Shown here piece by piece: positions 6,887-49,402 of a DNA stretch of 64,000 bases; the stretch's first letter is position 1, and each line of letters starts with the position of its first letter. Location of the stretch: positions 9,812 to 73,811 of the forward strand of contig WAKO01000015.1 in NCBI GenBank assembly GCA_015523325.1. The letters run 5' to 3'. The notes under the pieces are model-generated. The model searched no databases and was not told the DNA's origin. It saw only the letters and a list, made by a program, of their open reading frames with translations. The translations under genes and the position numbers were made by a program. Origin of the DNA: Candidatus Micrarchaeota archaeon (GTDB lineage Archaea > Micrarchaeota > Micrarchaeia > Anstonellales > J096).

Positions 6887-6938
6887 ACTTATCCCTAGCT
6901 TTTATATTTATCCAAAATTTTAGGGAACTTAGTTTAAC

Positions 6939-8981: not shown

Positions 8982-9047
8982 GTGTTGTAGCCAACATTTA
9001 AAAACTTTATTTGGTTGCTAAGAATAAAATTAAGGCATAAAAGCCAT

Positions 9048-9120
9048 GCCTCGGTAGCTCAGTAGGTAGAGCGCGTGCTTGGTAAGCACGAGGTCGCGGG
9101 TTCAAGTCCCGCCCGAGGCT
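9048..9120 (+). tRNA. tRNA-Thr (anticodon GGU), CCA not encoded
   Basis: Perfect hand-folded cloverleaf: gcctcgg-ta-gctc-agtaggta-gagc-g-cgtgc-ttGGTaa-gcacg-aggtc-gcggg-ttcaagt-cccgc-ccgaggc-t. Confidence 0.93.
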
Positions 9121-9157
9121 CTTCTAAATTCTTAACCTGTTATCCCATGTTTTTAAC

Positions 9158-21390: not shown

Positions 21391-21440
21391 TGGAGGCTTT
21401 AGTTTGGGCTAGGAGTTGGAAAGGCCCCTTGCACTTAAAC
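21391..21440 (-). promoter_or_regulatory. 3' trailer half of the 16S pre-rRNA processing stem
   Basis: In RNA sense, GUUUAAGUGCAAGGGGCCUUUCCAACUCCUAGCCCAAACUAAAGCCUCCA pairs with the leader at 22937-23013. Confidence 0.75.
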
Positions 21441-22936
<1,496 letters not shown>

Positions 22937-31868: not shown

Positions 31869-34800
31869 TTAACTTGCTTTATTCTCTTTATTTTCCCCAC
31901 TTATGCTTGAACCATTATTTGAATCATTTGATCTAAGAGAAGCTACACCTATTCCCAAGGAAGAAACAACCCCATACAAGTCTGGCCCAAATAAATAACC
32001 TCTCCTAAATCCTGGTTTTTGAACTTCTTTAGGAGAATAAACAGGAGAAAGAACACTATAGAGAGTTGTTCTTTCTAATGGAGAGGATTCCTTCCTAAAT
32101 ATGTTTATAGCTTCTAAAGTATCTCCAAAATAGAGCATATCCATAGCAAATAATGAGTAGGAAAGCAAATAATTAGAAGGCTTATCATGTTCTAAAACAA
32201 TAGCCTCTCCTCCAAGCACTTCTTTAGGAAGTTCATTTTTATAGAGCATTCTATTGTACTCATAAAAAGAATTAAGCCTTTTATTTTGCTCTCCTTGCTC
32301 TCTTTGTCCCTCTGCTCCCCAATTAAAGTAGCTTCTAACCCCTCTGATAGATGTTTCTAAAGTTGATTCCCTAAATGGTTGGAGAGGGGAAATTGAGGCT
32401 TGTGAAGGATAGGTTTCTATTTTCTCAACTTCTCTATAAAGACCTTTCCCAAATAAAAGTTCTTCAAAACCAAACCTTCCTTCTTCTGTTTTTAAATCAT
32501 ATCTAGAATCTATTATTTTTATTGCTCCTTTTTCTCCAAAGATCTCTCTTTGGGCTTTTTCAAACTCTGTCTTTGGAACAATTTTATTCAATTCCTCAAA
32601 AAACTTGTCTCTATTAAAGGTATTTCCCTCTGTTGAAGCTTGGATCGCTTGAGAGAATCTCTTTCTAGCCTTTAAAGAAAGCTCCTCATCATTTCCATGT
32701 AGAACTCTATTTAATGCAACCAAATAAGTTAAGGATTTCCTTGCAAAATCAGGGTCTCTCATTTGTTCTTCAAACTTAGAGTAATCTATGTTTTTATCCC
32801 TCCTAACTTTCTTGAACTCAGTCTTTGCTACTTCTTTAATAAATCGTGGTTGGTTACCATATAAGAAGGATAGTCCTCTCAAAACTTGGGAAGCCAAATA
32901 ACCTTTAATAGGGCTTCTCTCATCTTCAAGAATAACCTCAACTCTTTCTATAGGAGTTGTTATTTTTTCTCTCCTTAAGAGCAAAGCTGGTTTTTCTGGA
33001 CTTGGAGGAGAAGGAGTAGTTAGGGAAATCTTTAGAGTAGGTTGAGGAATAGGAGTAGATTGTTGTTCTTGGGTTTCTAACGAAGCCCTAAGCTTTGAAA
33101 GAACTTTCAAAGATCTTAAATTAATAAAGGAAGTTGCAGCTTGCTCAAGGTTTGCTTCTTTTATATTATAGAGAATTCCAGCCTGAAGAGAAGAGAGGTT
33201 TTCATCAGCATAATCAACATTAAACTTATCCAAAACATCTCTAGAGAATTCCCATATACTTAGTTGTCCTTTATAAAAGTCGTTTATCCTTCTCTCCATT
33301 CCATTTATTAAATTAAATATTTGCTTTGACTCTTTATTCAGAGAAACTTGAGAAGGTTTTTCCTTATCTTTTTCTTCCTTTTCCTCTTTAGCAGTGCCAG
33401 AAGTCCCAACAGCCTCAACACCCTTATCCTTAGAAGGCTTAGGAGGTTTTACTATAGCTGCTTGTTTTAATGACGTTATTAAAGCTCTTCTTTGATTTTC
33501 ATCCAAATCATAAAATGAAAGTAGGTTATTAATTGTTTCTTCATCTCTAAAAATAGCTCTAAGTTTAGCTTTTGCCTCCTCTCTACTTGATTTTTCAAGG
33601 ATATTTGCTACAACAAAAGCTAAAGAAAAGATTTGGGCTTCATTAACGGAAAGGGGTTTTCCTCTCTTTTGTGCTTCTTTAAAGTACTCATAAACATCAC
33701 CATAGTTTCCTAAGGTGGAATCTAATCCAAAGGATTTTCTCTCGTTTTCAACAATTTCTTTATAGAATTCTCTAGCCTTTTCTCTCCTAACTATAAACTC
33801 TCTAACTTGGTCCAACCTCTCAATGTTTCCAGTTTTTCCTGCAATATGAAGGTGTAAACCAAATAAAGAAATTTGGCTAGCTAAAAACGCCTTTTCTTCT
33901 CCATTACTAGAAAAGAATTTACTTATCATTGTCCTCAAATTATTTTCCTCATCAATAACAAACTCTCCCCCCAGCAAAGTATAGAGCATAGAAGAGAAAA
34001 ATCCATGTAAAGTGTGATAATTGGAATTAACTCCTAGAACATCTCTTATCGCTTGACTTCCTCCAAGGAACGCATAAGCCTCTAAAACTGCAAGGTTATA
34101 GGAAATCTTTTCTAGTTCATTCGGAGATCTTACATTAAGGTTTAAACTACCATTCCATGCATTCATATCCACCAAATTCTTTTCAGCTTTTTTAGATTCA
34201 CTAGCTAAAATACTTAAAGCTGTAGAAGTGGAATAGTGTTCATGCAACATTCTTAGCTCTCCTAAAGAGAAATCATTAGCCTTTACTCCAAAAATTTTGT
34301 TTAAAGAATAAAGAAGGAGGGAATTGAGAACTTTTCCATACAAATTTATTATGTTTGCTAGGGCTTTTGCTTTTGTTGCTATTAGTTTTGAGCTCTCAGC
34401 TATTAATTGTTCCTTTTCTTTTTTGGTTTTAGTTTCACTTCCTTCAAATGCCTCCTCCTTTTTTAGAGCTTCTTTTGGAATTATAGAGTGAATCGCTTTG
34501 GAGAGGATGTTTGAAACTGCTGAGCTCGCAACGGTTAGGAGAGGAACAGATAATTCCATTGCAACTTGGGTTGTGGTTAGAGGGTGGGTTATGGATCTCT
34601 TTGCTGCTTTTGCCGCTTGTTTTACTGTTTTTAGAGAAGGTTTAACAGTAGGTTTTAGCACTCCTTTCTTACTTCCTAACCCATACATTAGCGCTCCTGT
34701 GAGGGTTGTAGCAACCCTAACCGCTGTGGTTTGGAGAACTCTTAATCCAGAAGTAACTAAACTTCTCTTAAGAGGTGAAACCTTGTTCCCTCCTAATAAT

Positions 34801-36518
34801 TTTTTTGTTATTTTTTGGCTTGCTAAAGTAGTTACCTTTTCTGTTCCTTTTTTAGCTAAAGACATTGCTGTTGTGGCGGCTTTTGCTGTTTTTGTATCAA
34901 CATACCTTTTTGCAAGCCCTCCTGAATAATTAACTCTCAAAGCTCTGGCTGTTCCTACTCTACTCATATCAAAGAAGAAGAAGGGATTGTTTCCACTCTC
35001 ATACATTGAAACAAATAATAGGCCAAACAAAAGAACTATGGGAAGGCAAATAGCTATATTGTAGAGTAAATTATCAACCCTCTCTGGAGAGATGGGGGTG
35101 AAAACAGAATAGCGGGAAATACTAATTATGGTTGGGTAATCTACTTGCTCTTCAGTACTGTAAGGGAGAGTGTAATTTATGTAGGCATCTCTTGAAATAC
35201 ATTGAGGTTGTGGGAGAGGTTCAATTATAGCTTCCCCACAAGTAGGGATATCAAAATAGTTTTCATAATTATCTATTCCAAACTCATCAATACATTTTTT
35301 TAAAGCACACGCATTCCCAAGCTTTGAAAAGCAAACAACAGCATTTGTTCTTGTATAGTATTTTTCCTCTATACCATTATCAACTAACAACTTACTCACA
35401 TTTATTGTTGCTCTTCCAAGCTCTTTTGTGTTTACCCTGCAAGCATATTTTTTATCAACAAAGTCTTTGTTAACCTTTTGCTTATATTCAACTATGAAGA
35501 GGAGGGAAGCATTTCTTAAAGGATAAAAACCAGGGTTTTCATAATTAAAAACTAGAGGAGTTGCATTAACAATTATGTTGTTCTTCTCATTTTTTTCAAT
35601 AACAGAAACCCTTCCATAAGAAAGGTCTTTCAGGTCTTGGTATCTAAATTCTCCAAATAAATAAGGGGAGCTAACAGTACAGGTTGGAATTGTTGATGGT
35701 TGATAAGGGTTTATGCATGGTCCTTTTCCAGGAGAGGTTATGCAGTTAAGGGAAAATTGAGAAGATTGTCTTACTCCAGTAGAAGAGTCTTCAATATCAA
35801 TTGCTTGACCGAAATTATATTCATAGGAAAAGTTTGCAATAAAATCTGAAATAATAGCATAGCTTGAAAGTAAAGGAGTAGCAATTTCAGAGTTACAAAC
35901 AAATTCAAAACCCTCCTCCAAATATTCATAACCTGGAGGTTTGCTTATAGGAGAGCTGCTTCCTAAAACATTAAAATAGGAAGAAGTTATTGTGTTTAGG
36001 TCAAAGCCTCCATTATTTTTTTCAAATTCACATCCAACCTTAATTGTATCTCCTGTGTTCATATCAATTAAAGTGAAATTCAAAAATACATCTGTTATAT
36101 CAGAATCTAGGGAAAAAGTATTGTCTACTATACCATTACCATCTTGTTGTAAACCAAGCATCAAAGGGCCAACTCCTCCACCCCCTCCATCGCCTCCTCC
36201 ATTTCCTCCATCGCCTCCATTACCTCCATTACCTCCTCCATTTCCTTGCCCTTGATTAATAACAGCATTTATAGAGTAAACCTTGCCCGTTATTACAAGC
36301 TCATCATTTAAACATGAATTCGGATATTGAAAAGAAACATCACAAATACAACCTGCTATCGCATTAACATCAGGAGCACCAGGATCATTTTGAGGAGAGC
36401 TTATAAATATAGGGGCTTCTATACAATTAGTAGGACAAGTTATAACAATGGAATGTTGGGAGGAAAAAGAGAAAGTTATTAGGAAAAGAAAAATCAAAAA
36501 GGGAAAAGCTCTCATCAA
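31869..36518 (-). CDS. Giant bitopic envelope protein: signal peptide, ~460 aa Cys-containing ectodomain with a Gly/Asn tract, one TM, and a ~1040 aa basic predicted cytoplasmic region
   Basis: 1549 aa. N-terminus MMRAFPFLIFLFLITFSFSS, a G/N/D tract at residues 90-117, a TM LLYNIAICLPIVLLFGLLFVSMY at residues ~483-505 (nt 35004-35072), followed by K/R/T/A-rich sequence consistent with the positive-inside rule. Confidence 0.8.
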   Translation of the reverse strand: MMRAFPFLIFLFLITFSFSSQHSIVITCPTNCIEAPIFISSPQNDPGAPDVNAIAGCICDVSFQYPNSCLNDELVITGKVYSINAVINQGQGNGGGNGGNGGDGGNGGGDGGGGGVGPLMLGLQQDGNGIVDNTFSLDSDITDVFLNFTLIDMNTGDTIKVGCEFEKNNGGFDLNTITSSYFNVLGSSSPISKPPGYEYLEEGFEFVCNSEIATPLLSSYAIISDFIANFSYEYNFGQAIDIEDSSTGVRQSSQFSLNCITSPGKGPCINPYQPSTIPTCTVSSPYLFGEFRYQDLKDLSYGRVSVIEKNEKNNIIVNATPLVFNYENPGFYPLRNASLLFIVEYKQKVNKDFVDKKYACRVNTKELGRATINVSKLLVDNGIEEKYYTRTNAVVCFSKLGNACALKKCIDEFGIDNYENYFDIPTCGEAIIEPLPQPQCISRDAYINYTLPYSTEEQVDYPTIISISRYSVFTPISPERVDNLLYNIAICLPIVLLFGLLFVSMYESGNNPFFFFDMSRVGTARALRVNYSGGLAKRYVDTKTAKAATTAMSLAKKGTEKVTTLASQKITKKLLGGNKVSPLKRSLVTSGLRVLQTTAVRVATTLTGALMYGLGSKKGVLKPTVKPSLKTVKQAAKAAKRSITHPLTTTQVAMELSVPLLTVASSAVSNILSKAIHSIIPKEALKKEEAFEGSETKTKKEKEQLIAESSKLIATKAKALANIINLYGKVLNSLLLYSLNKIFGVKANDFSLGELRMLHEHYSTSTALSILASESKKAEKNLVDMNAWNGSLNLNVRSPNELEKISYNLAVLEAYAFLGGSQAIRDVLGVNSNYHTLHGFFSSMLYTLLGGEFVIDEENNLRTMISKFFSSNGEEKAFLASQISLFGLHLHIAGKTGNIERLDQVREFIVRREKAREFYKEIVENERKSFGLDSTLGNYGDVYEYFKEAQKRGKPLSVNEAQIFSLAFVVANILEKSSREEAKAKLRAIFRDEETINNLLSFYDLDENQRRALITSLKQAAIVKPPKPSKDKGVEAVGTSGTAKEEKEEKDKEKPSQVSLNKESKQIFNLINGMERRINDFYKGQLSIWEFSRDVLDKFNVDYADENLSSLQAGILYNIKEANLEQAATSFINLRSLKVLSKLRASLETQEQQSTPIPQPTLKISLTTPSPPSPEKPALLLRREKITTPIERVEVILEDERSPIKGYLASQVLRGLSFLYGNQPRFIKEVAKTEFKKVRRDKNIDYSKFEEQMRDPDFARKSLTYLVALNRVLHGNDEELSLKARKRFSQAIQASTEGNTFNRDKFFEELNKIVPKTEFEKAQREIFGEKGAIKIIDSRYDLKTEEGRFGFEELLFGKGLYREVEKIETYPSQASISPLQPFRESTLETSIRGVRSYFNWGAEGQREQGEQNKRLNSFYEYNRMLYKNELPKEVLGGEAIVLEHDKPSNYLLSYSLFAMDMLYFGDTLEAINIFRKESSPLERTTLYSVLSPVYSPKEVQKPGFRRGYLFGPDLYGVVSSLGIGVASLRSNDSNNGSSISGENKENKAS
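36168..36251 (-). repeat. Imperfect short tandem repeats encoding GQGNGGGNGGNGGDGGNGGGDGGGGG
   Basis: The plus strand shows reiterated cctccat/tacctcc units (36181-36240). It is low-complexity coding sequence. Confidence 0.8.
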
Positions 36519-36572
36519 ATCTAATAGGAAAGGATTATTTAAAAATTTTAGAGTTTTAATGGGTTTTTGTTG

Positions 36573-39500
36573 TTATTCAACTGGATAGCAGGTTGCATAC
36601 TTTATTCCTTGAGTAAATATTTCAGAGAGCTCTTGAGGGGATAAAGCTGTTGGATAGCAGTAGTTTTCCTCATTAAACCCTGGTGGAGGAATGTTAAAGG
36701 TTATAGGAGCTACATATTGAGAGGCAATAGCTACTGTTTTTGAGGTTTCATTATCACACAAAGAAAATCCAGTTTGGGAAAGAGAGAGGCCTATGAAATC
36801 TGATAGTTCTTCACTATACTCAGATATTTCAAACTCAGCTATTTCATCCTTCTTTATCTCACACCTTATTTTGCTTACACATTGTTTTTTAGGAATGCAA
36901 TCTGGAGTTTCACAATCATCAGCAACATCATAAGGCTGAGAAGACTTTAAGTTAACAAATCCTCCTAAACTCATAAGGTTCCTGCTAAATTGACAAATTC
37001 CTTCTGGAGAAGGGAGGAGGTAAAACCTCTTTCCAGGAATATTATTTTTGTTTAAAACATCCTCAAATTGAATTCCAATATTTCCATTGCTTATTAATGC
37101 GGATTTTCTATAATTTAAGTAAGAGAAGAAGAGCTCTAATTCACTCTCATTAGCATAAACAATATCATTTATGTAGAAGATTGTAGGAAGCCCAAGAGTA
37201 GAAAGGCTTAGCCTCGATATCTCTACAAGCTTGTCAACTTCACTCCTAGCTCTTAGCTCATCAAGCCCAATAATATTAAATCCTACTCTAAAAATAACTA
37301 CATCATATTTATCCTCTCTTTGGTCTTTAAATGGAGATAACTTGCTTAATCCCCTAGCATTATCCTCAAAGATTTCTTGTAAATCAGAAGTTTCCAAAGA
37401 GGAAAGAGGTTTATCAAAAGCAATTGAAATTCCTACCAAGCAATCTTTACAGCTAGCTTTTACAGCTTTTATTCTAGAGATAGTGTTTTGATTATTTACT
37501 GAATAACCTCTTTCAGAATAAAGGGCTTTATTATCAGAATCAAGGATTAATTTATTAGTTACTATTATTGCTGTTCCAGTATCTGCTTTTGAAAAGAAGG
37601 AGAAACCTCTTTCATTGTAAGGATCTCTTATAGCTAATTGCACATCTTGGAGAAGCTTTAGGAGAGGGAGGGAAAGAGAAAGTTCTTCAACACTAGGCTT
37701 AAAGAAAGGATCATATCCTTTATCAAGGTTTGTGTATTTAACCTCATAAAGGCTAGGATCATCAACAATCAAAACAGGAAGAATTCCTCTCCCCATATAG
37801 CTTATAAGCCTATCTTTAAGATAATAGTTGGAAGGATAGAAGTTTGGAGGGTTAAAAGATTCATTTGAATAAAACGTTACTCTAGGAGCAACCACAAACT
37901 CCTCTGATTTTGGGGCTTTTGTAAATACTCCATAAAAAGAAAAATTGGCTTCATCAGGAAGGTCTTGTAAGTCAAACCTATACCTTCCTTCTTCATAATC
38001 TTCCTCACTTCCTCCACTTACTTTTTCATAATTAATTGAAAACTTCTCTAAAGGAGGATCAGCATCAACTAAAGAAAGGAAATATAAATAAGCTTTAGAA
38101 GGGAGAGTATAGGAATAAAGGAATGTATTTGCTATTGGGTCAAGAAACTCATACTCCCAAAGCCTCTCCACTCTTATATACCTAGTCTCAACAGCTCCAG
38201 CATACCTCTTATCACAACCTATTCCATATGCTAAACATCCTTCCTTTCCCAAATATTTTCTATGAAGTTCCCAATCTACAGGGTTCCATTCCCAATAATC
38301 AATAAATCTAGAAGGAGGCTCCAATTTATCACAATCCTTATCTATCATGCAAGTGTATAGAACATCATACCATAAACTACGCAAACTACTTTCTTCAGGG
38401 TAATTTAAAATTATGGTTTCAATGAAAGGAGGAGTTGGAGAGAGTATTCTTCCAACCTCCTTTATTAACTCAGTCCCATCTATATTCTTTGAGAGGGCAA
38501 TTAGGTTTAGTGTTCCTCTAAAAGAGCTCTTTTCATCAAAAAAGGAAGTGAAATTAATAACATCTGGGATGTATTGGGAGGTTTTTGAAGAAATTTCTAT
38601 TGAGCTCTCTATTTCCTCAAAAGCAAGGTTTAGAGGGGAAGAGCCTTCACAATATCCAAACTCATTAACCCTCAAACCTGTTAGAGTGTCATTAGCAATA
38701 CATTTTCCAAACTTTCCATCAGAGATTTCATCTTTAAACACAAAAGCAGAAACAGCCATATCTCCAAAGCAAGTTCCTTCATACTCATCTCCAACCCAGC
38801 TTCCTAAGCAAAAGTATTTAGGAGGCAACTCAGCGCATAACTCTGGATTTATTGAATAAGGAGAATTACTAAGATTAAGCATTAAAGAATCTCCTTGATA
38901 AAGAGAGTTAGGGTATTTTGTTATATAAGGATTAAAGCAAAACGCATACTCTATTTCTTGGTTTTCATTGCAATTATCATAAACTGGAAAATCATTTTGG
39001 GATGTTCCTGAATAAGAGAGATAGTTTAAGTAGGTTGAATCTGTTTCATAATTTGAAGGAGAGGTTGAGGAAGGCCAAGCCTTTGGAGCTAAAAATAAGT
39101 AGTCCCTCAAATCTGATAGTCTGGCTAGAGATAGATCTTGGCCCTTTGCCCCATAAGATATTACAGGGATCCCACTCTCTATAACAGCACATCTCTTTCC
39201 ATCTTGAAAACCAAGATCTGTTTGCTTTTCAAAACCTATAGGAAGCATAGGAGAAACATCACTTGCTAAATCAAAGAATAAAAGAGAGTAGTTTACATCA
39301 ACCCAAGGGCCAACCTCTCCATAAGAGGCTAGGAAAAGTCTTTCCTTCTCATATTGCTCTACCAATTGCTCAAAGAACTCTGGATTTCCAGTAAAGTAGT
39401 TCATTATATACATTTCTTGAGTGTTCTCTTTTACAAAGGTTTTTGAAGGAGCAGGAATAGCTTCTCTTTCCAAAATAACTCCCCTAAGGAACGGTCCTCT

Positions 39501-41849
39501 TCCATCATCAAAGTATTTAACTCCTTTAAAGCTTCCTATGTTTGAAGGAAATAATGGAGAGTTAAAATCAGTTATTCTTCCATTATCATCCACTATTGAG
39601 ATTGGACCATTTTCTCCTAACTCCTCTGGGAAAAGCCAAGCGTCTTCCCTTTCCTTAATATTATAACCTCCTCCAGATGTATTAACCAAAGTGAATATAT
39701 CGTCTCCTCTTAAGTTAGTATAACACCTATAATCGCTTGGAGATAAATCTTCATTAAGTATTGGATAAGATTTATCAAACAGATTGGTTCCTACAAATAT
39801 AACTTCAGTTTGTGGACCTACAGATGCAAAAGCTATAGAAAATGTAGAGGAGTAATATGAATCAGAAATACTAGGTATTAATGAATTTCCTGTTTGATCT
39901 TTACACCCTCCAAATATATTTAAGTTTCCGCACACGTCTTCCAAAAACCCTCCAGGATCTGCATCAAGAGTTAGATTTACATCATTGTTTGGATATCTTT
40001 GGTCTATGTTTCTACACACATCTTCCAAATTAATATCCTTTATATAATTTCTTCCATCAAATATTATTCCAACATATTTATCAGATATTTCTTTTCTTAT
40101 ATCTTGAGCGCTACAGTAGTAAGGATCTGTACTATTAATGTTTTGGTTCTCTCTTGCAGTTATATTATAGTCAACATAAACAAAAATACTTCCTCCCAAA
40201 TGAGCAAGATAAATAAACCTATCGCTTCCTTCTCCATAATAATAAGGTTTCATTACAAGAACTTTTGGATGTTTTTCAACCAAATCTTTTTCTGAGAGAT
40301 AGGGTTTGTTTGGGGAGGATTGGCTAATTGGAGTTCCATCAAATAAATTATAGGAGTCAGGATATAAATAGTTGCAATCACCTCCTGTACAGCCACAAGG
40401 AACTTCTACAAGCTCTCCATTTTCAATTGCTGTGCAAGAGCTCCTATAATAATCTTTTTTATTGCAAAAAGAGGAAAGGCAATCTTGCCCACTCCTACAT
40501 TCATATTCAGCCCCAATCCTTTCCCTTCCCTCCTTATCCATACTTCCAAATTTAAACTGTTCATAATAAGTAGGAACTCTCCTTAATAATTCTGGATAGG
40601 AGTTGAGAGGGGCTCCTTCTAAAATTGTTATTGTTGAGTTCTCATAAATGCCTTGGGTTATGTTTCTAATTTTTCCAAGAGAACTTGATTTAGCTTTAGA
40701 AAAAGTAGGAAGGTAGTACTCATCTCCCTTTCTTTCAGAAGAAAATTCAAAACTCCCTAAATCTTGAGAAGAGCTAACCAAGCTTTGAAGAATTTCTTTA
40801 TCAAAAGATAAGCCAAATAAATAAGGAGTTACATAAACCTCATATCCCTTTTCATTAAACAACTCTCCATTATTTAAGAAAGGTATTTGCTTACTTTTGT
40901 ATTCTTGAGAATAGCAAAAAGAAAGAGAAGAGAAAGGTTTTTTCTCATTAGGAGAGAAGAGAAAATCTTGCTTTGCATTTAACATACATTCCGCAAAAGT
41001 AGTGAAGTTATTTATCCTCTCAGAACTTGAAGGAGAATAACCATTCAACACCCAATAATCTCCTTTCTTAACACAAAGTTGCTGATTATTTATCATTTCC
41101 TCAGTTAAATAAGTATAATAATCATCCACAAACCCAGAAGGGTTTAAGGCTAACATGTAGGAGGAGAAAGGAACTAAAGTTCTTGCTATCTCAAAGTCCT
41201 CAAAACTCCTTCCAGCCCCTATCCTATAGGTTACGAATAAAGCTCTTTGTGACTTAAGCTTTTCTAATGAGGAAGGAGTTAGTTCTCTAAACTCACACCT
41301 CGCATAAAGGAAATTAGATTGAGTTGAAACTAAATATTGGAAGTTATAATTAGGCAATCTATAGGTTAAGGAAACTCCTTCTCCAAAAACTCTTCTATTC
41401 TCTTCAGCATCAGCTATGGAAAAGGATTCTTTTTGAGGAGAATAATACATAGAAGGATAACATACTAGGTAAGTGCAACCAAATTCACACTTCTCTCCTG
41501 CCAAAAAGGTTCCAGGACAAGGAGAAACTTCTAAAGGAGAGGGAAACTCAACTATCTCATTATTAACTTTATCCCTTAAAGCACATATCTTACAAAATCC
41601 TGTTTCTTGAAATTCACTACAATCATACCAGTTTCCTCCACACCCTCCACAATCAATTCCAGAAGGACATTGTTTTTGGGAAAGTCCAACATAATCATCT
41701 GAAAATACTTGAGGAAGTGCATTGTTTTCCAAAACATCCTCCATGTTTGTTATACAAAGCTCTCCAACCTCTCTTAAACATCCTTGCAAAAATAATAGAG
41801 AGAGGAAAAGGATTATAAGGAAAGGCTTAAGGCCAAGTTTTATTCTCAT
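36573..41849 (-). CDS. Giant Cys-rich secreted or lipobox-like surface protein
   Basis: 1758 aa. N-terminus MRIKLGLKPFLIILFLSLLFLQGC, many Cys clusters (CPSGIDCGGCGGNWYDC; CRSGQDCLSSFC; CGCTGGDC), and no C-terminal TM. Confidence 0.8.
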   Translation of the reverse strand: MRIKLGLKPFLIILFLSLLFLQGCLREVGELCITNMEDVLENNALPQVFSDDYVGLSQKQCPSGIDCGGCGGNWYDCSEFQETGFCKICALRDKVNNEIVEFPSPLEVSPCPGTFLAGEKCEFGCTYLVCYPSMYYSPQKESFSIADAEENRRVFGEGVSLTYRLPNYNFQYLVSTQSNFLYARCEFRELTPSSLEKLKSQRALFVTYRIGAGRSFEDFEIARTLVPFSSYMLALNPSGFVDDYYTYLTEEMINNQQLCVKKGDYWVLNGYSPSSSERINNFTTFAECMLNAKQDFLFSPNEKKPFSSLSFCYSQEYKSKQIPFLNNGELFNEKGYEVYVTPYLFGLSFDKEILQSLVSSSQDLGSFEFSSERKGDEYYLPTFSKAKSSSLGKIRNITQGIYENSTITILEGAPLNSYPELLRRVPTYYEQFKFGSMDKEGRERIGAEYECRSGQDCLSSFCNKKDYYRSSCTAIENGELVEVPCGCTGGDCNYLYPDSYNLFDGTPISQSSPNKPYLSEKDLVEKHPKVLVMKPYYYGEGSDRFIYLAHLGGSIFVYVDYNITARENQNINSTDPYYCSAQDIRKEISDKYVGIIFDGRNYIKDINLEDVCRNIDQRYPNNDVNLTLDADPGGFLEDVCGNLNIFGGCKDQTGNSLIPSISDSYYSSTFSIAFASVGPQTEVIFVGTNLFDKSYPILNEDLSPSDYRCYTNLRGDDIFTLVNTSGGGYNIKEREDAWLFPEELGENGPISIVDDNGRITDFNSPLFPSNIGSFKGVKYFDDGRGPFLRGVILEREAIPAPSKTFVKENTQEMYIMNYFTGNPEFFEQLVEQYEKERLFLASYGEVGPWVDVNYSLLFFDLASDVSPMLPIGFEKQTDLGFQDGKRCAVIESGIPVISYGAKGQDLSLARLSDLRDYLFLAPKAWPSSTSPSNYETDSTYLNYLSYSGTSQNDFPVYDNCNENQEIEYAFCFNPYITKYPNSLYQGDSLMLNLSNSPYSINPELCAELPPKYFCLGSWVGDEYEGTCFGDMAVSAFVFKDEISDGKFGKCIANDTLTGLRVNEFGYCEGSSPLNLAFEEIESSIEISSKTSQYIPDVINFTSFFDEKSSFRGTLNLIALSKNIDGTELIKEVGRILSPTPPFIETIILNYPEESSLRSLWYDVLYTCMIDKDCDKLEPPSRFIDYWEWNPVDWELHRKYLGKEGCLAYGIGCDKRYAGAVETRYIRVERLWEYEFLDPIANTFLYSYTLPSKAYLYFLSLVDADPPLEKFSINYEKVSGGSEEDYEEGRYRFDLQDLPDEANFSFYGVFTKAPKSEEFVVAPRVTFYSNESFNPPNFYPSNYYLKDRLISYMGRGILPVLIVDDPSLYEVKYTNLDKGYDPFFKPSVEELSLSLPLLKLLQDVQLAIRDPYNERGFSFFSKADTGTAIIVTNKLILDSDNKALYSERGYSVNNQNTISRIKAVKASCKDCLVGISIAFDKPLSSLETSDLQEIFEDNARGLSKLSPFKDQREDKYDVVIFRVGFNIIGLDELRARSEVDKLVEISRLSLSTLGLPTIFYINDIVYANESELELFFSYLNYRKSALISNGNIGIQFEDVLNKNNIPGKRFYLLPSPEGICQFSRNLMSLGGFVNLKSSQPYDVADDCETPDCIPKKQCVSKIRCEIKKDEIAEFEISEYSEELSDFIGLSLSQTGFSLCDNETSKTVAIASQYVAPITFNIPPPGFNEENYCYPTALSPQELSEIFTQGIKYATCYPVE

Positions 41850-41858
41850 GATCTCCTC

Positions 41859-42896: not shown

Positions 42897-42939
42897 ATTA
42901 CCCCTTTCTCAGAGCAAATATAAAATTTTAATGGAAAAA

Positions 42940-44031
42940 TTACCAAGTAATTATTCCGCTCATTCTTATAAACATCTCCATAAGATTATTGCTTTCCCCT
43001 AAAAGCCTTAGTAAAGATCTAACAACAACAGCCATTATTATCAAATTTATAGAGCCAAACAAAACTACCCTAAATATTAATCCCGCATAGGCCTCAATTA
43101 TATTTGAAACATTTATAACAACTCCTGATTTATCTTCAATAATAACATTTGTTCCACTTCCCTTAATCTTCCATTCATCAGTTAAAGTTCCCAAAGAGAG
43201 TTGAAGAAAAGATTGGCTTATGGAAGGAATTCTATCATTAGTTAGCTTAGAAGCTGAGGAGAAATCGGTTGCAATCAAATCATTTGAATTCAAATTTGGT
43301 AAGCCAAGAACATACGCTTCTAAAACTATTAAAAGAGGGTAAAAAACATAAAAAGAGAGGATTAAGGCAAATAGCACATTAGCAAAGGTTCTAGTGAATG
43401 GAATTAATCTCATAACTATCATTATTGAGAGAACAGCTACAATGTTTTGAGAGAGAAAGAACTTTATAAGAACTAGCTGGGAAAATGCAAAAAGAAAAAC
43501 AGTTGTGAAAAGCAAAGAGGAGATTTGGAATAAAAAGCGAGTAGCCCACTCTAAATCAGAAAAAGGATAAATAAAGGTTTGGGGAGCTCCTAGCAAACAA
43601 ATTAAAAAACTATTTGAAGCACATTTTGAGATGCTTATTCTTGTTAAATAAAGCAAGTGCATTAAAGCCCAATTATTTGCTGCTGAGAGTTCTAAGGAGG
43701 AAGCAGTGAGGGAAAGTGAATAATCATAAGCAGCCTCATAAAAACAATCTCCTTGGAGTATTCCTTGCTTTCCTGTAATGCTCTCCATAAAATCATTCAG
43801 CAAAGATGAGGAGGTGTCTTTGAAAAAAGAAACTATTATTATTAGAAAAACTATTATGAAACCATCTGCAATAACATTCCATATTTCTTCTCTTGCCCAA
43901 AAGGATACTTTTTCATCCCCTATTATGCGTGAGGCTATGAAAGCTATTGCTATTATTCCGAATGAAACAAGAACACTTAAAGAGAGTAAAGAAACATCAA
44001 TTGAAAATGCTGTGGAACATAAATCTGCCAT
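42940..44031 (-). CDS. Polytopic membrane protein, paralog 5
   Basis: 363 aa. Signature RLIPFTRTFANVLFALILSFYVFYP (nt 43336-43410) and C-terminal RLLGESNN. Confidence 0.8.
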   Translation of the reverse strand: MADLCSTAFSIDVSLLSLSVLVSFGIIAIAFIASRIIGDEKVSFWAREEIWNVIADGFIIVFLIIIVSFFKDTSSSLLNDFMESITGKQGILQGDCFYEAAYDYSLSLTASSLELSAANNWALMHLLYLTRISISKCASNSFLICLLGAPQTFIYPFSDLEWATRFLFQISSLLFTTVFLFAFSQLVLIKFFLSQNIVAVLSIMIVMRLIPFTRTFANVLFALILSFYVFYPLLIVLEAYVLGLPNLNSNDLIATDFSSASKLTNDRIPSISQSFLQLSLGTLTDEWKIKGSGTNVIIEDKSGVVINVSNIIEAYAGLIFRVVLFGSINLIIMAVVVRSLLRLLGESNNLMEMFIRMSGIITW

Positions 44032-44038
44032 CTTATCC

Positions 44039-45148
44039 TCATCCTCCTGAAATGTAGTAGGTTAACCTTCCTATTATGAATGGGCTTATCTCAGCTCCAA
44101 GTATCTTCGCTATTCCTCCAACAATAGAAACAAAAGTTAGTAATGTTATTCCCTGCGCCAATATTACAAAAAACACAAAGGAAGAAATAACACTACCTGA
44201 AGAGGTTATTGCATTCTTAACCTTAGATAAGTAAGAAGTTAGTTTTGAGTTAGGGCAAGGAAAGACTAAAGCTTCTACTCCTGAAAGCTCAACTTTTATA
44301 GAGTTATAGAAGGAATTTATTTGGTTTTGTATTGCTGCTTGGCCAGTAAAGTAAGTGTTAACAACAGCATTTGAAACTAAGATGGAGAAGGGCATTATTG
44401 AATACAAACCTATTGCTAATGCTAAGAAAAATGCTCCTCCACCTCTAGTTATTGGATTAGCTCTAAGTATTATTCCAATTGCAAGCAAAACAGTTATTGC
44501 TTCTTGGGAAGAGAGTTGTTCTATTAAAAACCTCTGAAACTCTAAAGCCATATAAGCAATTCCCAAAAAATAAGAAAATCCAGACATTGGTCTTATCACC
44601 GCATTATAAGCAGTGCATGGACTTAGAGAGGCTCCAGCATCTGCAGCAGGGTTTGATAAAAAACCTCTAATTCCACTACTTTCAGGATCACTACTTCTTG
44701 GAAATTCTATGGAAGTGGAGGAAAGGAAAGAAACCTGAGAAGTTAGAGAGGCCATAGCACTAGCATCTCTTAAAAAGGAAGAATGAGCATTTAGAATATC
44801 GCTCAAAACTCCTGCATTATAATCAAGAACTAAAAGGGAAGAGCTAATCAATGCATTTCTAGAAGCATTTGCCCCTGTAGTGTAGGAGTATATTGTTGCT
44901 CCTCCTATCTTCTTATTTATATAATCTGCCAACAAACCAAATAAATTATTGGCTACATCAGAAAATAGGAAAGACGTTAAAGCAACAAACAAAGCTAGGA
45001 AAAGAACATATTCAAAGAACTCGTTTCTTGAAATTATTATTAGGGAGGAGTTTTGGAGAGCCTTGCCTATCATAAACATTAAACTATAGAAGAGGACTGG
45101 AAAAACGATGATAGGGGCTAAAGGGGAGAGCTCAACCATATAACTCAA
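44039..45148 (-). CDS. Polytopic membrane protein, paralog 4
   Basis: 369 aa. Signature RANPITRGGGAFFLALAIGLYSIMP (nt 44390-44464), preceded by QRFLIEQLSSQEAI, with C-terminal KILGAEIS. Confidence 0.8.
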   Translation of the reverse strand: MSYMVELSPLAPIIVFPVLFYSLMFMIGKALQNSSLIIISRNEFFEYVLFLALFVALTSFLFSDVANNLFGLLADYINKKIGGATIYSYTTGANASRNALISSSLLVLDYNAGVLSDILNAHSSFLRDASAMASLTSQVSFLSSTSIEFPRSSDPESSGIRGFLSNPAADAGASLSPCTAYNAVIRPMSGFSYFLGIAYMALEFQRFLIEQLSSQEAITVLLAIGIILRANPITRGGGAFFLALAIGLYSIMPFSILVSNAVVNTYFTGQAAIQNQINSFYNSIKVELSGVEALVFPCPNSKLTSYLSKVKNAITSSGSVISSFVFFVILAQGITLLTFVSIVGGIAKILGAEISPFIIGRLTYYISGG

Positions 45149-45224
45149 CCTACATTCTTTAACAATCTTTTCTATTTCTTTTCTATTTTTTCAAATTTAT
45201 TTTTTTCCCTTAATCCCAAGATTC

Positions 45225-47207
45225 TTACCTAAAGAGCTTGTTTATTGCTGGAAGGAACATATCTCCCTCCATAAATGAAGAGAATCCCGCAACACTATAA
45301 ATTGTTGCAATTAGAGCTAGTAAAGGAATTCCATAAGTAGCAAATATTACCTTTCCTAAATCCAATAGCTGAGATTGTTCATTTGCAAACAAAACAGTTA
45401 CAAGAGGGGCCCTATTAGCACAAAGACTACAATCCACATAAGTTGGATAATATCTTAGGTTGGTTGGGTAGTTTTCACATCCAGAACAAGTTCCATAAGC
45501 GCTTGGCAAAGGTTCCACAACAACCTCAAAATAATTTTTAAGATTTTGTCTATTAATGAGGAGGGTTGACCAATCCTCATAATTAAATATTCCTTTTGAT
45601 TGCTCATACCATCCATTTCCTCCAAAACAATTGTATTCAGCAAAGCAAACGTCCTCTGTATAATTATCAAATTTTAAAATGTAGTTGCTGCCTGTGTAAT
45701 AAGCATCAATACTCCTACATTGAGTAGGGCAAAAAACATTAAAGCTATCTTTTGTTCCAGGAACTATATTTGGAAGGCTCCTACAATCAGTTGGGCACTC
45801 AATCTCATACTTTTGAATGTCATCAGAAGGAGAAGAGAGCTCAAATATCTCATTATAAAGTTGCTCATTCTCATATGCATACATCTTCTTAAAACATTGA
45901 GGATAATTATCATACAAAACTTTGCAAGCTCTCTCTGCATCTCTACATTGAATTGAATCATCTGGGTATGGGAGGGTTCTACACTCCTCAAAACAATAAA
46001 GCCCTGTTGTGTCTTGAGGAGTAGCGTTAGGGGAAAGAGGGGTTAAGGTTAATCTACTCCCTCTCCTTATCTCGTAAAGTTGCTCAAAACCTGCTTCTTC
46101 AGAATATCCTTTCAATGTTGCTAAGGAAACAACATCATTAGCATAATCTAAAGCACCTAGCTCTCTTGCATAATACTCACAAGAGTAGAATGTTGTAGAA
46201 GTTTGAGGATCAACAAATGTTTCTGTTTCCCCTCTAATAAATTCAGGAGCAAATTGGTAGAGGGCTATTTCATTACTAAAAACTTGCTTTGGATTTGTTT
46301 TATCATAAAAAGCTATTACATTGTTAAAGCAAACTGAAGGGCAAACTTCATAAGAAGATTCTTGCAATTGAGAGATTGGTTGGAAGAAAGGAAAGTAGAA
46401 GAGAAACATAAATGTGGGGTAAAATAGCATTATCCCTAAACCAACAGCAATTAGAGTAGAACCTATTCTCCTACTAAATATAAAAATTCTTAATAGAATT
46501 CCTACAGCCAATATAGCCGGGCCAAATAAGGAGGTGGAAAGCTTAAGAGTAAAGAAGGATACTACAACTCCAATATAAGCAAACTCAAAGAAATCTCTTA
46601 GTATTAACTTTGGATAAGAAGAAGCTCCTTTATCATACTCATATCCAAAACTAGAATAAGCTGCAATTAGGTTTTCTATTCCAATATGAAAACCCAAAGT
46701 TACTTGGGATTTGGCTATTTCCTTGTTTATCTCAATAACTTTATTTTCCATTGGTTCTAAATAGGAGTTCTTTAAGTAGTTAAACACAAAGTTATCCAAA
46801 CAAAATCCATAACTGTTTTGAGGATCACAAGCAATAGCATAATCTTTTTCAAGGCTAACTAAGCCAACCAAAAAATCAACAAATGCTAGAGCAATTATTA
46901 GGAACATCACTATAGCTGTATTTGCTAGGAGTTCCTTTACTTCTATTCTGAAATAATACTTAAGGATTTGTAAATTAAAGAGATCTCCAAGCATATAAAG
47001 CAAAGCTGTTATAAAAACAGCAATAGCTAAAGAAAGGATTGCTAAAGCCTGCCAATTCTTCAAAATATCAAACAATATGCCAGAAGGAGCATTTTGGAGG
47101 TCTTGAAACCTTTGTTCTAGAGAAGTGGAAAAAGTTATAGCTAAAATAAAGGCAAGGAAGAAAATAAAAAGAAAATATCTGGATCTCTCTTCTTTCATAC
47201 TATTCAC
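45225..47207 (-). CDS. Polytopic membrane protein, paralog 3, with a ~330 aa Cys-rich extracytoplasmic insertion
   Basis: 660 aa. Signature RIFIFSRRIGSTLIAVGLGIMLFYP (nt 46416-46490). A Cys-rich domain follows (CFEECRTLPYPDDSIQCRDAERAC; CPTDCRS; CPTQCRS; CSGCENY), then a final TM. Confidence 0.8.
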   Translation of the reverse strand: MNSMKEERSRYFLFIFFLAFILAITFSTSLEQRFQDLQNAPSGILFDILKNWQALAILSLAIAVFITALLYMLGDLFNLQILKYYFRIEVKELLANTAIVMFLIIALAFVDFLVGLVSLEKDYAIACDPQNSYGFCLDNFVFNYLKNSYLEPMENKVIEINKEIAKSQVTLGFHIGIENLIAAYSSFGYEYDKGASSYPKLILRDFFEFAYIGVVVSFFTLKLSTSLFGPAILAVGILLRIFIFSRRIGSTLIAVGLGIMLFYPTFMFLFYFPFFQPISQLQESSYEVCPSVCFNNVIAFYDKTNPKQVFSNEIALYQFAPEFIRGETETFVDPQTSTTFYSCEYYARELGALDYANDVVSLATLKGYSEEAGFEQLYEIRRGSRLTLTPLSPNATPQDTTGLYCFEECRTLPYPDDSIQCRDAERACKVLYDNYPQCFKKMYAYENEQLYNEIFELSSPSDDIQKYEIECPTDCRSLPNIVPGTKDSFNVFCPTQCRSIDAYYTGSNYILKFDNYTEDVCFAEYNCFGGNGWYEQSKGIFNYEDWSTLLINRQNLKNYFEVVVEPLPSAYGTCSGCENYPTNLRYYPTYVDCSLCANRAPLVTVLFANEQSQLLDLGKVIFATYGIPLLALIATIYSVAGFSSFMEGDMFLPAINKLFR

Positions 47208-48138
47208 TTCCTAATGAGAATACATCAAAAATTTTCTTAAAGTTTGAGATAAAGCTGAAAACCAATCCAAGTATTAGATTTGGAATAAATACAGAGGTTA
47301 AAGTATAGATTTGCAAAAACGCTAAATCCTCACAAGTTATTGGAGTTAGAAAATAAAAAGAAAAACCAGAAGGAAGCTTTCCCTCCAACTCATCACAAAG
47401 GTCTAAATAAAGGCTTGCTATTGGATTGGAGAAGTCAATAAAAGGATAGAGAAAAACTGAATAAAGAGAAGGAAGTAGGAAAAATATTCCTATGAATAAG
47501 GAATACATGAAATCTCCTACAGAAGTAAAGCCTGGAATAATCCTTATTATTAAAGCTAAGAGAAGGAGGATAAAAATAGCATTGCTACTTACTAATAATT
47601 CTAAAATAAATCTTTGAATGGAGAGAGTAGCCAGGATTGCGTTTAAAGCTCCTATTCCCATATTAGCATTTTCCACAAATATAATATTTTTTGGAGCTGA
47701 TCTAGAAGGGAAAAAAGCAATCCCAGAGCCAAAGCTACTTATTTGCCTATAAACTATTGAATTAGGGCCAAACTCAGTAATTATTTGGTCTCTATAATAC
47801 TTTATCTTTCTTATTATTTGAAGTTGCATTATTTTTATTGACTCTCCTCCAGCTGTAACCAAAAACTCATAATCATCTCCTGCTGGAAGTAAATAGGAGA
47901 AAGTAAAGCAAAATAAAGAGAGCAAAGGTCCTGTTATTGCAAAAAATAAGGCAGAAATTGCAAAGTTTCTCATGAGATCTTGAAAAAGCAAAACTGCTCT
48001 TCTATCGTTTGGATTAGCTCTTGTATAAACAAAGAGAGCTATTGAGGAAAAAGCTAGGATTAAGATTAAAACTGCAATAGTTCCTTGATTTTTTAGCAAT
48101 TCATTAACCAAAGCTGTTGAAATGTCAAGGCACTTCAT
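47200..48138 (-). CDS. Polytopic membrane protein, paralog 2
   Basis: 312 aa. Signature RIIPGFTSVGDFMYSLFIGIFFLLP (nt 47470-47544), preceded by QRFILELLVSSNAI. It overlaps the next gene by 8 nt. Confidence 0.8.
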   Translation of the reverse strand: MKCLDISTALVNELLKNQGTIAVLILILAFSSIALFVYTRANPNDRRAVLLFQDLMRNFAISALFFAITGPLLSLFCFTFSYLLPAGDDYEFLVTAGGESIKIMQLQIIRKIKYYRDQIITEFGPNSIVYRQISSFGSGIAFFPSRSAPKNIIFVENANMGIGALNAILATLSIQRFILELLVSSNAIFILLLLALIIRIIPGFTSVGDFMYSLFIGIFFLLPSLYSVFLYPFIDFSNPIASLYLDLCDELEGKLPSGFSFYFLTPITCEDLAFLQIYTLTSVFIPNLILGLVFSFISNFKKIFDVFSLGSE

Positions 48139-48145
48139 GCTATCC

Positions 48146-49327
48146 CTAAATTAATCTTTCCACCCCATATAGGAAGAACTCTCCTCCTAGAATTATTGAT
48201 AAAGATCTTATAAAGGAAATCACTACTAAAGCAACCACAAAATAAAACATAAAGATGCCTACTGTAAAACCAATAAGAGCTTGTGAAAAAAGAGGGAAAA
48301 ACCTGCTTGAAAAAGCGCTATCAACCAAAAAGATTTGGTTTCCTGTAATATAAGACATTAACCCCCCATATGAAACTGCTTTTACCCCATTAATTAAAGA
48401 TGTTAGAGCTATTGAAGCAACATCAGAAATTATTGGAATCCCAATTAAAGCTGTTATGTTTAAAGTGTAAGCTGTTAAGGTTAAAGCCCTTGAGAAATAA
48501 GCAAAAGTTCTAAAAAATCCATTTATGAAATTTCCGTAGGAGAGGAGGGAATTTAAAGCTCCTGCCTCAGCCTTAGCATTATCAATTAGAGCAGTTATTC
48601 CAAGCAAAGAGTTGTCATCAAGTAATGAGTTCGTTATGTCTGAAGCCAAAACAACTGTCATAGGTAAAACTAAACCCGCCCCTATTCCAATAGCAACCAT
48701 TGTAGAGCCAAGCTTTCTGGTTAAAGAAAATGTCCTAAAAAATATTCCCAAAGGAATAAAGAACTTTATTGAAAAAAACTCAAAAATTAGCATTAACTGC
48801 TTAAGGCCAGACAAATAAGTTAAGTGGTCAAAAATGCTTGAATAAAATATTAATAATTTATCCAAAAGGATAGAGAAAGAAGAGGTCTGAAAGCTCCCTC
48901 CTACCTTAAACCCAATAGCTCTAAAAACAAAGCTTACAGAGTTTGAAACTGAGATGCTAGAAACAGTAGCTGCAGGAGGAATGTATTGGGAAACCAAATC
49001 ATACATTCTAAATAAAAAAGGGTTTATTATATTATCATCTATTTTAGAGATTGCTAGATCCACAAAAGAACTCTTAGGCTTTTGTAAAAAGTTTGAAGCT
49101 AAGCTATCAAAATAGTCCCAACCAACTGCAATAACTAGTAGTAAAACCAAGTTTAGGATTATGGTCTTAACTTCCTCTCTATAAGTTATTATCCCCCTTT
49201 CATTTCTTGAGACTAAATTAAAGTAATAGAGAGCTGTTGCAAAGGAGAGAGAGGCTACTGAAGCAACTAAGATTAAATCTGAATATTGGAGCATATCAAA
49301 AGGAGAGAGATTTGTCAAATGAGACAT
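48146..49327 (-). CDS. Polytopic membrane protein, paralog 1 (first gene of the locus)
   Basis: 393 aa. Signature RTFSLTRKLGSTMVAIGIGAGLVLP (nt 48662-48736) and C-terminal IILGGEFF. Confidence 0.8.
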   Translation of the reverse strand: MSHLTNLSPFDMLQYSDLILVASVASLSFATALYYFNLVSRNERGIITYREEVKTIILNLVLLLVIAVGWDYFDSLASNFLQKPKSSFVDLAISKIDDNIINPFLFRMYDLVSQYIPPAATVSSISVSNSVSFVFRAIGFKVGGSFQTSSFSILLDKLLIFYSSIFDHLTYLSGLKQLMLIFEFFSIKFFIPLGIFFRTFSLTRKLGSTMVAIGIGAGLVLPMTVVLASDITNSLLDDNSLLGITALIDNAKAEAGALNSLLSYGNFINGFFRTFAYFSRALTLTAYTLNITALIGIPIISDVASIALTSLINGVKAVSYGGLMSYITGNQIFLVDSAFSSRFFPLFSQALIGFTVGIFMFYFVVALVVISFIRSLSIILGGEFFLYGVERLI

Positions 49328-49402
49328 TAATTTAATTTCTAAGTTATTGTTTAAAAGCTCTATGTTTTAGCTTTGTTTTTTCTCTTCTCAAAAAAGAAAA
49401 CA

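Follow-up and report, generated by a model that had tools for sequence, protein, structure and literature searches.

A 64,000-nucleotide stretch of a Candidatus Micrarchaeota archaeon contig (WAKO01000015.1, assembly GCA_015523325.1; the whole analyzed stretch is called the window below) carries six tandem genes for related polytopic membrane proteins (M1 to M6, together the hexad), followed by genes for two giant Cys-rich proteins (G1 and G2). The six proteins are paralogs that share one topology, their conserved, ordered array is syntenic across archaeal genomes, and in relatives it has neighbors of the sort seen in a type IV secretion system (T4SS). The explanation that we prefer, and to which we give about an even chance, is that the locus encodes a conserved DPANN-type, T4SS-related heteromeric channel or platform of the cell envelope, here teamed with giant surface proteins. 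The features of the locus, in the order in which they would be transcribed, are:

49328..49402, minus strand: intergenic region of 75 nt upstream of M1, sequence read directly; putative promoter
48146..49327, minus strand: M1, hexad position 1; 393 residues (382 in the database call), polytopic, no Cys
47200..48138, minus strand: M2, hexad position 2; 312 residues, without VirB2-like pilin modules
45225..47207, minus strand: M3, hexad position 3; 660 residues, with a Cys-rich insert of ~320 residues
44039..45148, minus strand: M4, hexad position 4; 369 residues, position mapping ambiguous
42940..44031, minus strand: M5, hexad position 5; 363 residues
41859..42896, minus strand: M6, hexad position 6; 345 residues, the paralog modeled by AlphaFold2
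36573..41849, minus strand: G1, giant secreted Cys-rich protein; 1758 residues, lipobox-like N terminus
31869..36518, minus strand: G2, giant bitopic protein; 1549 residues (1548 in the database call)
30714..31775, minus strand: basic protein of 353 residues with a signal-like N terminus, 93 nt downstream of G2

Pairwise similarity among M1 to M6 is weak (BLASTP E values of 1e-6 to 1e-2), and the proteins have in common the signature hhhR.hP..R..G..h.A...G.....P in the hairpin formed by transmembrane (TM) segments 3 and 4. A profile built from M1 to M6 recovered all six at E 1e-73 or better. M1 to M6 are true paralogs of an unannotated family, whose motif is LR.F..TR..GG.LIA.AIG.Y..YP. The initial annotation had proposed that the six polytopic genes are related, and the shared TM3-TM4 signature and the profile searches confirmed it; the coordinates, spacings, topology and Cys distribution that it had given were likewise all reproduced, as was the paralogy. 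Exhaustive HMMER searches of 1.84 billion representatives, clustered at 50% identity, placed 2979 clusters in the family at E ≤ 1e-3; with a cutoff of E ≤ 1e-10 the number was 2234. Word-indexed homolog searches are insensitive for this family and for G2 and returned only 6, 7, and 2 matches.

The family occurs as an array of fixed size. When fetched loci were searched with the family hidden Markov model (HMM) over six-frame open reading frames (ORFs), exactly six tandem co-directional members were found in 73 of the 95 sources; lower counts fell mostly on short or cut contigs, counts of seven arose where two ORFs represent a single split member, and in one source the family was present in single copy. 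With one sub-family as query, GTDB representative genomes yielded 80 loci, nearly all from metagenome-assembled genomes (MAGs) of Candidatus Micrarchaeota/Micrarchaeia, with a few labeled Candidatus Iainarchaeum and one from the complete genome of Ca. Fermentimicrarchaeum limneticum. A genome-collection scan with the M6 orthologs returned no locus, which we read as absence of the window's lineage from that collection. The fetched loci contain 69 nonredundant complete hexads, mainly from Micrarchaeota/Iainarchaeota MAGs and from relatives of the window. Many hexads lie among housekeeping genes (for example, leucyl- and aspartyl-tRNA synthetases, two FtsZ genes, a DUF2070 protein).

The order of the six genes is conserved as well as their number. 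GCA_053992915.1 is the closest relative, and its array corresponds to that of the window gene for gene, encoding 390, 314, 714, 378, 375, and 355 residues. M6 orthologs are 44 to 54% identical, and the M1 ortholog P0003 is 43% identical. Across the 69 hexads, the best cross-locus BLAST hit fell on the same position in 64, 87, 92, 67, 75, and 89% of cases for positions 1 to 6, respectively. Because orthology is position-specific, both the order of the genes and their six-fold duplication are older than the split between these lineages. The pattern is read most simply as one obligate heteromeric complex formed by the six paralogs, and the hetero-oligomeric platform put forward in the initial annotation would be the natural reading of six such paralogs. 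Directly upstream of the hexad in GCA_053992915.1 (L002 2750-3853 and L003 1455-2558) is a gene for an SLT_2 lytic transglycosylase (4.8e-35), in the place that the pyruvate kinase gene occupies in the window. VirB1-type hydrolases accompany T4SSs, and a murein-type hydrolase beside this apparatus in an archaeon is notable.

Hydropathy, positive-inside charges, the position of the M3 insert and the AlphaFold helices give the family a topology of five TM segments with the N terminus outside and the C terminus inside, in which a large extracellular loop connects TM2 to TM3. The AlphaFold2 model of M6, made from an alignment of 118 sequences, has a predicted local distance difference test score (pLDDT) of 80 and a predicted template modeling score of 0.76. 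It is all-helical: TM1 (helix 26-56) and TM2 (helix 60-97) are followed by a long hairpin of two helices of 38 to 51 residues each between TM2 and TM3, which we read as extracellular. TM3 and TM4 then pair in a tight hairpin, and a disordered loop leads to the last TM helix. TM3 and TM4 are joined by the R..P..R..G turn, which is conserved and faces the cytoplasm. On the cytoplasmic face of each subunit, the conserved elements are a WAK.E loop, the LR.F..TR..GG turn and, at the C terminus, an LGGE...RLI tail; each subunit also has a long helical hairpin on the outside. Conserved charges (two Arg and one Glu) are located where membrane and cytoplasm meet.

The extracellular loops are fast-evolving and often Cys-rich. 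In M3 the insert of ~320 residues, with 20 Cys, lies in the TM4-TM5 loop and is read as an extracellular domain. Cys-rich inserts at position 3 are also present in L096, L099, L100, L055, L059, L077, and other loci. The hexad position that bears the insert varies by lineage; the position-1 paralog in L038 (5181-9113) is enlarged to 1310 residues with 158 Cys, and the position-3 paralog in L077 (9224-13972) to 1582 residues with 106 Cys.

The giants recur beside the hexad. G1 contains 50 Cys, and its N-terminal hydrophobic segment ends in LFLQGC (...LLFLQGC); homologs have LMGC, MPGC, LSGC, or LQGC at the same place. Compared with the lipobox consensus [LVI][ASTVI][GAS]C, the residue before the Gly is often Q, M, or P in G1 and its homologs, which is off-consensus. 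Orthologs of G1 directly follow the M6 orthologs in three relatives; the one in L014 has 1988 residues, 34% identity over the full length, 62 Cys, and an LQGC start. By iterative search, five Micrarchaeota hexads have a G1 homolog directly downstream, and a metagenome scan with the G1 alignment gave seven loci. Hexads directly followed by a G1 ortholog or homolog are those in L011, L012, L014, L055, L059, L077, L082, L095, L096, and L099 to L102. The metagenome G1-like proteins have a lipobox-like start and 57 to 98 Cys, and the metagenome G2-like ones combine a signal with a Cys-rich ectodomain and a TM segment. On four unrelated metagenome contigs (L096, L099, L100, L101) the order is hexad, G1-like, G2-like, as in the window.

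G2 consists of a signal-like N terminus, a Cys-rich ectodomain of ~480 residues, a TM segment at ~481-509 with a conserved juxtamembrane motif, and a cytoplasmic part of ~1040 residues. All 17 of its Cys are N-terminal of the TM segment, and none occurs in the 1040 residues after it. Sixteen giants encoded divergently upstream of Micrarchaeota hexads (the complete ones reach 1958 residues) form one family, in which an N-terminal TM segment and another near residue 200 accompany a very large cytoplasmic part. The HMM of these giants matched G2 at 486-566, that is, at its TM and juxtamembrane segment (E 2e-10), and among 8425 ORFs G2 was the sole nonmember that it matched. By this synteny and similarity, G1 and G2 belong to the hexad module. 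The initial annotation had counted the giants as partners of the six genes and had argued for a conserved, lineage-specific apparatus; both proposals are strengthened, since the gene order, giant partners included, recurs widely in other genomes.

Searches for a known family gave a uniform outcome. Pfam and NCBIfam scans of the nine locus proteins (M1 to M6, G1, G2, and the 353-residue protein) found nothing above noise, Pfam scans of 118 family members and nine enlarged members found no domain, and sequence searches of the PDB with the family profiles, G1 and the G2-family profile were empty or at noise level. The hexad family has no match to T2SSF (PilC/FlaJ) or to related Pfam and NCBIfam entries, and it is absent from both databases. 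In Foldseek searches with two models, nothing in the PDB or BFVD matched below E 0.4. The view that these are not members of a known transporter, pilus-platform, secretin, or S-layer family was therefore upheld by the Pfam, NCBIfam, and PDB searches at the level of sequence and fold, and the fold search suggested earlier, made here with two models, one of them the AlphaFold2 model of M6, assigned no known family. No description of the module was found in the full-text literature searched.

The lead toward type IV secretion comes from the neighborhoods of hexads in other genomes. In about a dozen Micrarchaeota loci, genes for a 6-TM protein, a PMT_2 glycosyltransferase, and two VirB2-like pilins precede the hexad, and genes for two paralogous bitopic proteins of ~270 residues, an ATPase of ~510 residues, and three small proteins follow it. 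The free pilins score 26.9 bits with PF18895, above the gathering score, and match TrbC/VirB2 at 1e-4 to 6e-4; the sole PDB match of their profile, a weak one (E 0.15), is the R388 pilin TrwL/VirB2, for which hhalign gives a probability of 31%. The ATPase carries a Walker A motif, its best NCBIfam matches are CedB (6e-19), CedD, the VirB4 of a Mycoplasma integrated conjugative element (ICE), and the CD1110 VirB4-like family, and its PDB matches include a VirB4-like protein and HerA helicases. Neither the bitopic proteins of ~270 residues nor the three small proteins encoded behind the ATPase are related to G1 or G2. Two variants of the ATPase were observed in Micrarchaeia MAGs: in L031 (15798-18941) the hexad-linked CedB-like protein is lengthened to 1047 residues by an intein (N-terminal splicing region, 1.2e-14), and in L021 (14641-15951) and at the equivalent place in L022, the only loci of this kind, the gene directly downstream of the hexad encodes a FlaI/VirB11-type (T2SSE) ATPase instead of a CedB-like one.

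Pilins are also joined to the hexad proteins themselves. The free-pilin HMM, used without iteration, matched N-terminal extensions of paralogs in 21 of the 69 hexads with E values of 1e-8 to 3e-18, in most cases as a tandem pair of modules on the paralog at position 2. Another 9 hexads have free pilins, so that pilin modules are present in 30 of 69 overall. The free-pilin profile aligned with the TM1-loop-TM2 hairpin of the hexad family at an hhalign probability of 46% (E 2e-4), and a similarity of this kind has been reported for CedA/CedA1 and VirB6/VirB2 (PMC9905601). The single-copy family member (350 residues) is found in L008 (699-13177), between a gene for a pilin-like protein of 137 residues and one for a CedB/VirB4-like ATPase; the same locus contains a second CedB/VirB4-like ATPase gene, a gene for 251 residues, a type IIG restriction-modification gene and an integrase gene. 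This is the layout of an ICE. The initial annotation had set a T4SS connection aside, a judgment that we reverse in view of the VirB2-like pilins and CedB/VirB4-like ATPases that flank hexads in other DPANN archaea and of the pilin fusions. As judged from gene context and profiles, a type IV secretion-like connection is the best lead.

Several results weigh against a T4SS-related channel. Within the window and 10 kb on each side of it (84 kb), neither a pilin nor a VirB4/CedB-like ATPase is encoded, nor is any accessory protein of the pilin-plus-ATPase loci: the HMM of the hexad-linked CedB-like ATPases found nothing at E ≤ 0.1, no ORF of at least 40 residues was pilin-like at E ≤ 1, and M1 to M6 contain no pilin module. 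The sole Walker A protein of the window is an ABC ATPase, and the 10-kb flanks beyond its ends contain housekeeping genes only. Elsewhere, the ATPase lies within 10 kb of 7 to 12 of ~70 hexads; 19 of the 69 have G1/G2-type giants, and 20 have neither pilin, ATPase, nor giants. With so few hexads accompanied by an ATPase and 20 without any marker, the T4SS association could be secondary. PF04610 (TrbL/VirB6) matched neither the six window paralogs, searched to E 1, nor any of 118 family members, with TrwI of R388 as positive control at 4.9e-50. In hhalign, the alignment of 118 family sequences reached a probability of 0.13% against TrwI and of 0.24% against an MPF_T VirB6 alignment that is shallow (8 sequences) and proteobacterial only. 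By fold, TrwI (PDB 8rt9_F) ranked 11th in Foldseek with the model of pLDDT 69 (E 2.5, TM-score 0.23-0.27), and TrwI/VirB6 fell outside the top 50 with the model of pLDDT 80; in BFVD the second-ranked match, a TrbL-annotated phage protein, was without significance (E 0.6). Finally, the 1040 cytoplasmic residues of G2 contain no domain recognizable in Pfam or in a PDB search with the G2-family profile.

These results bear on a different explanation, which we consider unlikely, namely that the module is a self-standing complex for envelope biogenesis or anchoring that inserts, anchors, or matures the disulfide-rich giants and has no mechanistic link to T4SSs. The giants could then form an S-layer-like or adhesin coat, and the pilin and ATPase neighbors would be a later, lineage-specific association. 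Such a complex would account for a module of the window's type with neither pilin nor ATPase within 84 kb, for G1- or G2-like giants near 19 of 69 hexads versus the ATPase near 7, for the repeated fusion of Cys-rich ectodomains into hexad paralogs, and for the absence of sequence or fold homology to VirB6. It does not readily explain why pilin modules are fused in 21 loci and free in 9 more, which is hard to understand if the two have no functional connection; the ICE-like L008, with its single-copy member, suggests an origin of the conjugation type, and no known archaeal system for surface-protein assembly uses proteins of this kind.

We think it improbable that the six proteins form a multi-subunit transporter or uptake channel for host metabolites or lipids, with the giants as unrelated neighbors. 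The proteins are polytopic, they have conserved charged residues at the membrane-cytoplasm boundary, and their genes lie among housekeeping genes in a metabolically reduced genome of the symbiont type, all of which a transporter would fit. However, no transporter family was matched in Pfam, NCBIfam, or the PDB by sequence or fold, five TM segments with extracellular helices of 50 residues are not the architecture of any known transporter, the giants are syntenic over great evolutionary distance, and pilins are fused to family members. That the locus is the remnant of an ICE carried by chance in this genome is scarcely credible in spite of the single-copy member in the L008 island with its integrase, restriction-modification gene, and VirB4-like ATPases, and we reject it on the core-gene context and the position-specific orthology: the order of the hexad is fixed across distant lineages, the locus sits among core genes at a G+C content equal to that of its surroundings, all of its ORFs are intact, and no integrase, relaxase, or repeats were noted beside the hexad in the window.

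For the T4SS-related envelope channel that we prefer, the following arrangement can be proposed, in which the assembly of a complex, what passes through it, and a role in host contact are what we infer. M1 to M6 most likely would form one heteromeric, possibly ring-shaped, membrane complex, whose six-fold order would suit the docking of a hexameric VirB4-type ATPase where one is present. The long helical hairpins might build a stalk or tube that points outward. The family would be tied in evolution to the archaeal machinery of the Ced, Ted, and conjugation type, in the place of the VirB6/CedA/TedA channel protein. In the window's lineage, the hexad has no pilin or ATPase genes linked to it and is co-encoded with G1 and G2 instead. 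The hexad would serve as membrane platform or conduit, and G2 may dock on it through its TM and juxtamembrane segment, its large cytoplasmic scaffold providing a link to the cytoplasm. G1 and the Cys-rich ectodomains of M3 and G2 could then make up an exposed, distal, fast-evolving structure for host contact.

The layout of the genes bears on how the module may be expressed. In the ORF table, the eight minus-strand ORFs and the ninth downstream have the same positions and spacings as in the initial annotation, with junctions from M1 to the 353-residue gene of 7 nt, an 8-nt overlap, 76, 7, 43, 9, 54, and 93 nt. Chance ORFs are excluded by their lengths of 312 to 1758 residues in DNA of 34% G+C and by their orthologs in other genomes. 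The G+C content is even across the locus, and its surroundings are chromosomal core genes (aminoacyl-tRNA synthetases, FtsZ, ribosomal proteins, pyruvate kinase). In the intergenic region 49328-49402, already pointed out as TATA-like, the upstream pyruvate kinase gene is followed by an oligo-T tract, and a TATA-like TTTTAAA lies 20 to 26 nt ahead of the M1 ATG, a spacing that suggests that M1 is a leaderless first gene. Shine-Dalgarno-like GGAGG/GGGGT sequences precede M2, M5, M6, and G1. G2 and the 353-residue gene each have a TATA-like box of their own; the one upstream of G2 is TTTTTAAATA, at 17 to 26 nt, and G2 may thus have its own promoter. The G2 ORF starts (36513-36518) with a TTG directly followed by an ATG, and the database call P0163 (1548 residues) takes the ATG.

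Of the co-transcription proposed for all eight genes, the part from M1 to G1 stands as a plausible single transcript. The operon fits M1 to G1 best because G2 and the 353-residue gene have their own TATA-like boxes. For the 353-residue protein, no homolog was found in any fetched locus and no match in Pfam or NCBIfam; it had been listed as a further secreted protein downstream of the eight genes; because related loci have no homolog, we do not count it in the module, and it probably lies outside. That the locus encodes no ATPase was correct, as the Walker A motif is absent from all nine proteins.

Some other features of the window may be recorded. A second run of Cys-rich envelope proteins is encoded at 6251-12505 on the minus strand: one of 211 residues with 6 Cys, one of 680 residues with 10 Cys and 3 TM segments, and one of 1115 residues with a signal peptide, 33 Cys, and a thrombospondin type 3 repeat (3e-5). 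A homolog of the 680-residue protein, with 705 residues, is encoded 3.8 kb downstream of the Micrarchaeota hexad in L033. A complete archaeal 16S rRNA gene stands alone at 21440-22934 (minus strand), with no 23S rRNA gene in the 64-kb window; the G+C content there is 0.41-0.44, versus ~0.34 elsewhere. The protein of 319 residues encoded at 24054-25013 (minus strand) has a weak match to ankyrin repeats (Ank_5, 1.5e-4), which are unusual in an archaeon.

DPANN archaea attach to hosts and take up lipids, nucleotides, and metabolites, and we know of no conserved machinery that has been pinned down for this. Since some relatives have it within a conjugation-like gene cluster, the module is a strong candidate for a DPANN cell-to-cell contact machinery, and a testable one, with a sharp signature (six ordered paralogs plus the motif) and an occurrence in Micrarchaeota, in Iainarchaeota, and in the lineage of the window, among them genera that have relatives in culture. 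If the T4SS-related reading is true, type IV secretion-derived systems in archaea extend beyond Ced and Ted. A large protein family (~3000 clusters at 50% identity) is added to those known. A bolder proposal, which we hold to be rather unlikely, is that a pseudo-six-fold heterohexameric channel derived from a conjugation-type VirB6 analogue occurs throughout DPANN and, with the Cys-rich giants, constitutes the host conduit or attachment organelle behind the cell-cell bridges seen by electron tomography. It is a real possibility that the module deserves to count as a new kind of system.

The closest comparison is with VirB6/TrbL of T4SSs and with CedA of the Sulfolobales Ced system and TedA of the Thermoproteales Ted system, the latter two likened here by gene context and description. 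Like VirB6 (PMC2653234), the hexad proteins are polytopic with a large extracytoplasmic loop and a cytoplasmic C terminus, a feature that is not family-specific. Like all of these proteins, family members have a VirB2-like pilin and a VirB4-like ATPase as neighbors, namely in L008 and in those Micrarchaeota loci that carry both pilin and ATPase. The hexad family is conserved only in the TM-cytoplasmic segment, and in VirB6, too, conservation is concentrated in that segment and the extracellular parts are variable (PMC2653234). As reported for CedA and VirB6 (PMC9905601), the first helical hairpin is weakly similar to the cognate pilin. In contrast to VirB6, CedA, and TedA, there are six fixed paralogs rather than one gene; the signature motif differs from that of VirB6, to which no sequence, profile, or fold similarity was detected; and, unlike in Ced, Ted, and T4SSs, the hexad of the window has no linked pilin or ATPase.

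The rvh T4SS of Rickettsiales has tandem enlarged VirB6 paralogs, five of them in Rickettsia (PMC2653234), and Anaplasma has a giant VirB6-4 (PMC7648143). As there, the hexad belongs to a reduced-genome, host-dependent organism and consists of tandem polytopic channel-type paralogs, some hugely extended by nonconserved domains, with conservation limited to the TM-cytoplasmic core. The rickettsial proteins, however, are bona fide PF04610 members that work within a complete VirB/D system of diderm bacteria, whereas the hexad family is archaeal and unrelated by sequence, and the hexad, unlike the rickettsial array, is fixed at six with its order kept across phylum-level distances.

The SPEARE-type giants of Nanohaloarchaeota have been reinterpreted as T4SS-linked (PMC10266531). 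G2 resembles them as a giant bitopic DPANN protein with a large extracellular part, one TM segment, and a large cytoplasmic part; like the hexad-linked giants, SPEARE proteins have been given a proposed host-contact role and are encoded near T4SS-type genes. SPEARE proteins combine ectodomains of immunoglobulin-like repeats with a VirB4/TraG-like ATPase as cytoplasmic part, whereas the Cys-rich ectodomain of G2 is without recognizable repeats, and G2 shows no Walker A motif and no match to an ATPase or other domain.

In Patescibacteria (the candidate phyla radiation, CPR), the T4SS is related to monoderm conjugation machinery and is reported to be essential for the epibiotic growth of a Saccharibacterium; most clusters are without a relaxase, and their VirB6-type components are extremely divergent (PMC12102498). 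The hexad loci are similar in that they would encode a chromosomal, conjugation-derived apparatus of ultra-small episymbionts, with VirB2-like pilins of the PF18895/PF04956 type in the cluster and an extremely divergent component in the place of VirB6. The CPR systems differ in that they are bacterial, have a single VirB6, and have a linked and nearly universal VirB4, and no six-paralog array or Cys-rich giants have been described for them. Six fixed paralogs of this family and partners such as G1 and G2 thus set the module apart from the VirB6/CedA/TedA, Rickettsiales, SPEARE, and CPR systems, none of which has them. We do not claim that the family is VirB6; judged by its gene neighborhoods, it appears to stand where VirB6, CedA, and TedA stand in such systems.

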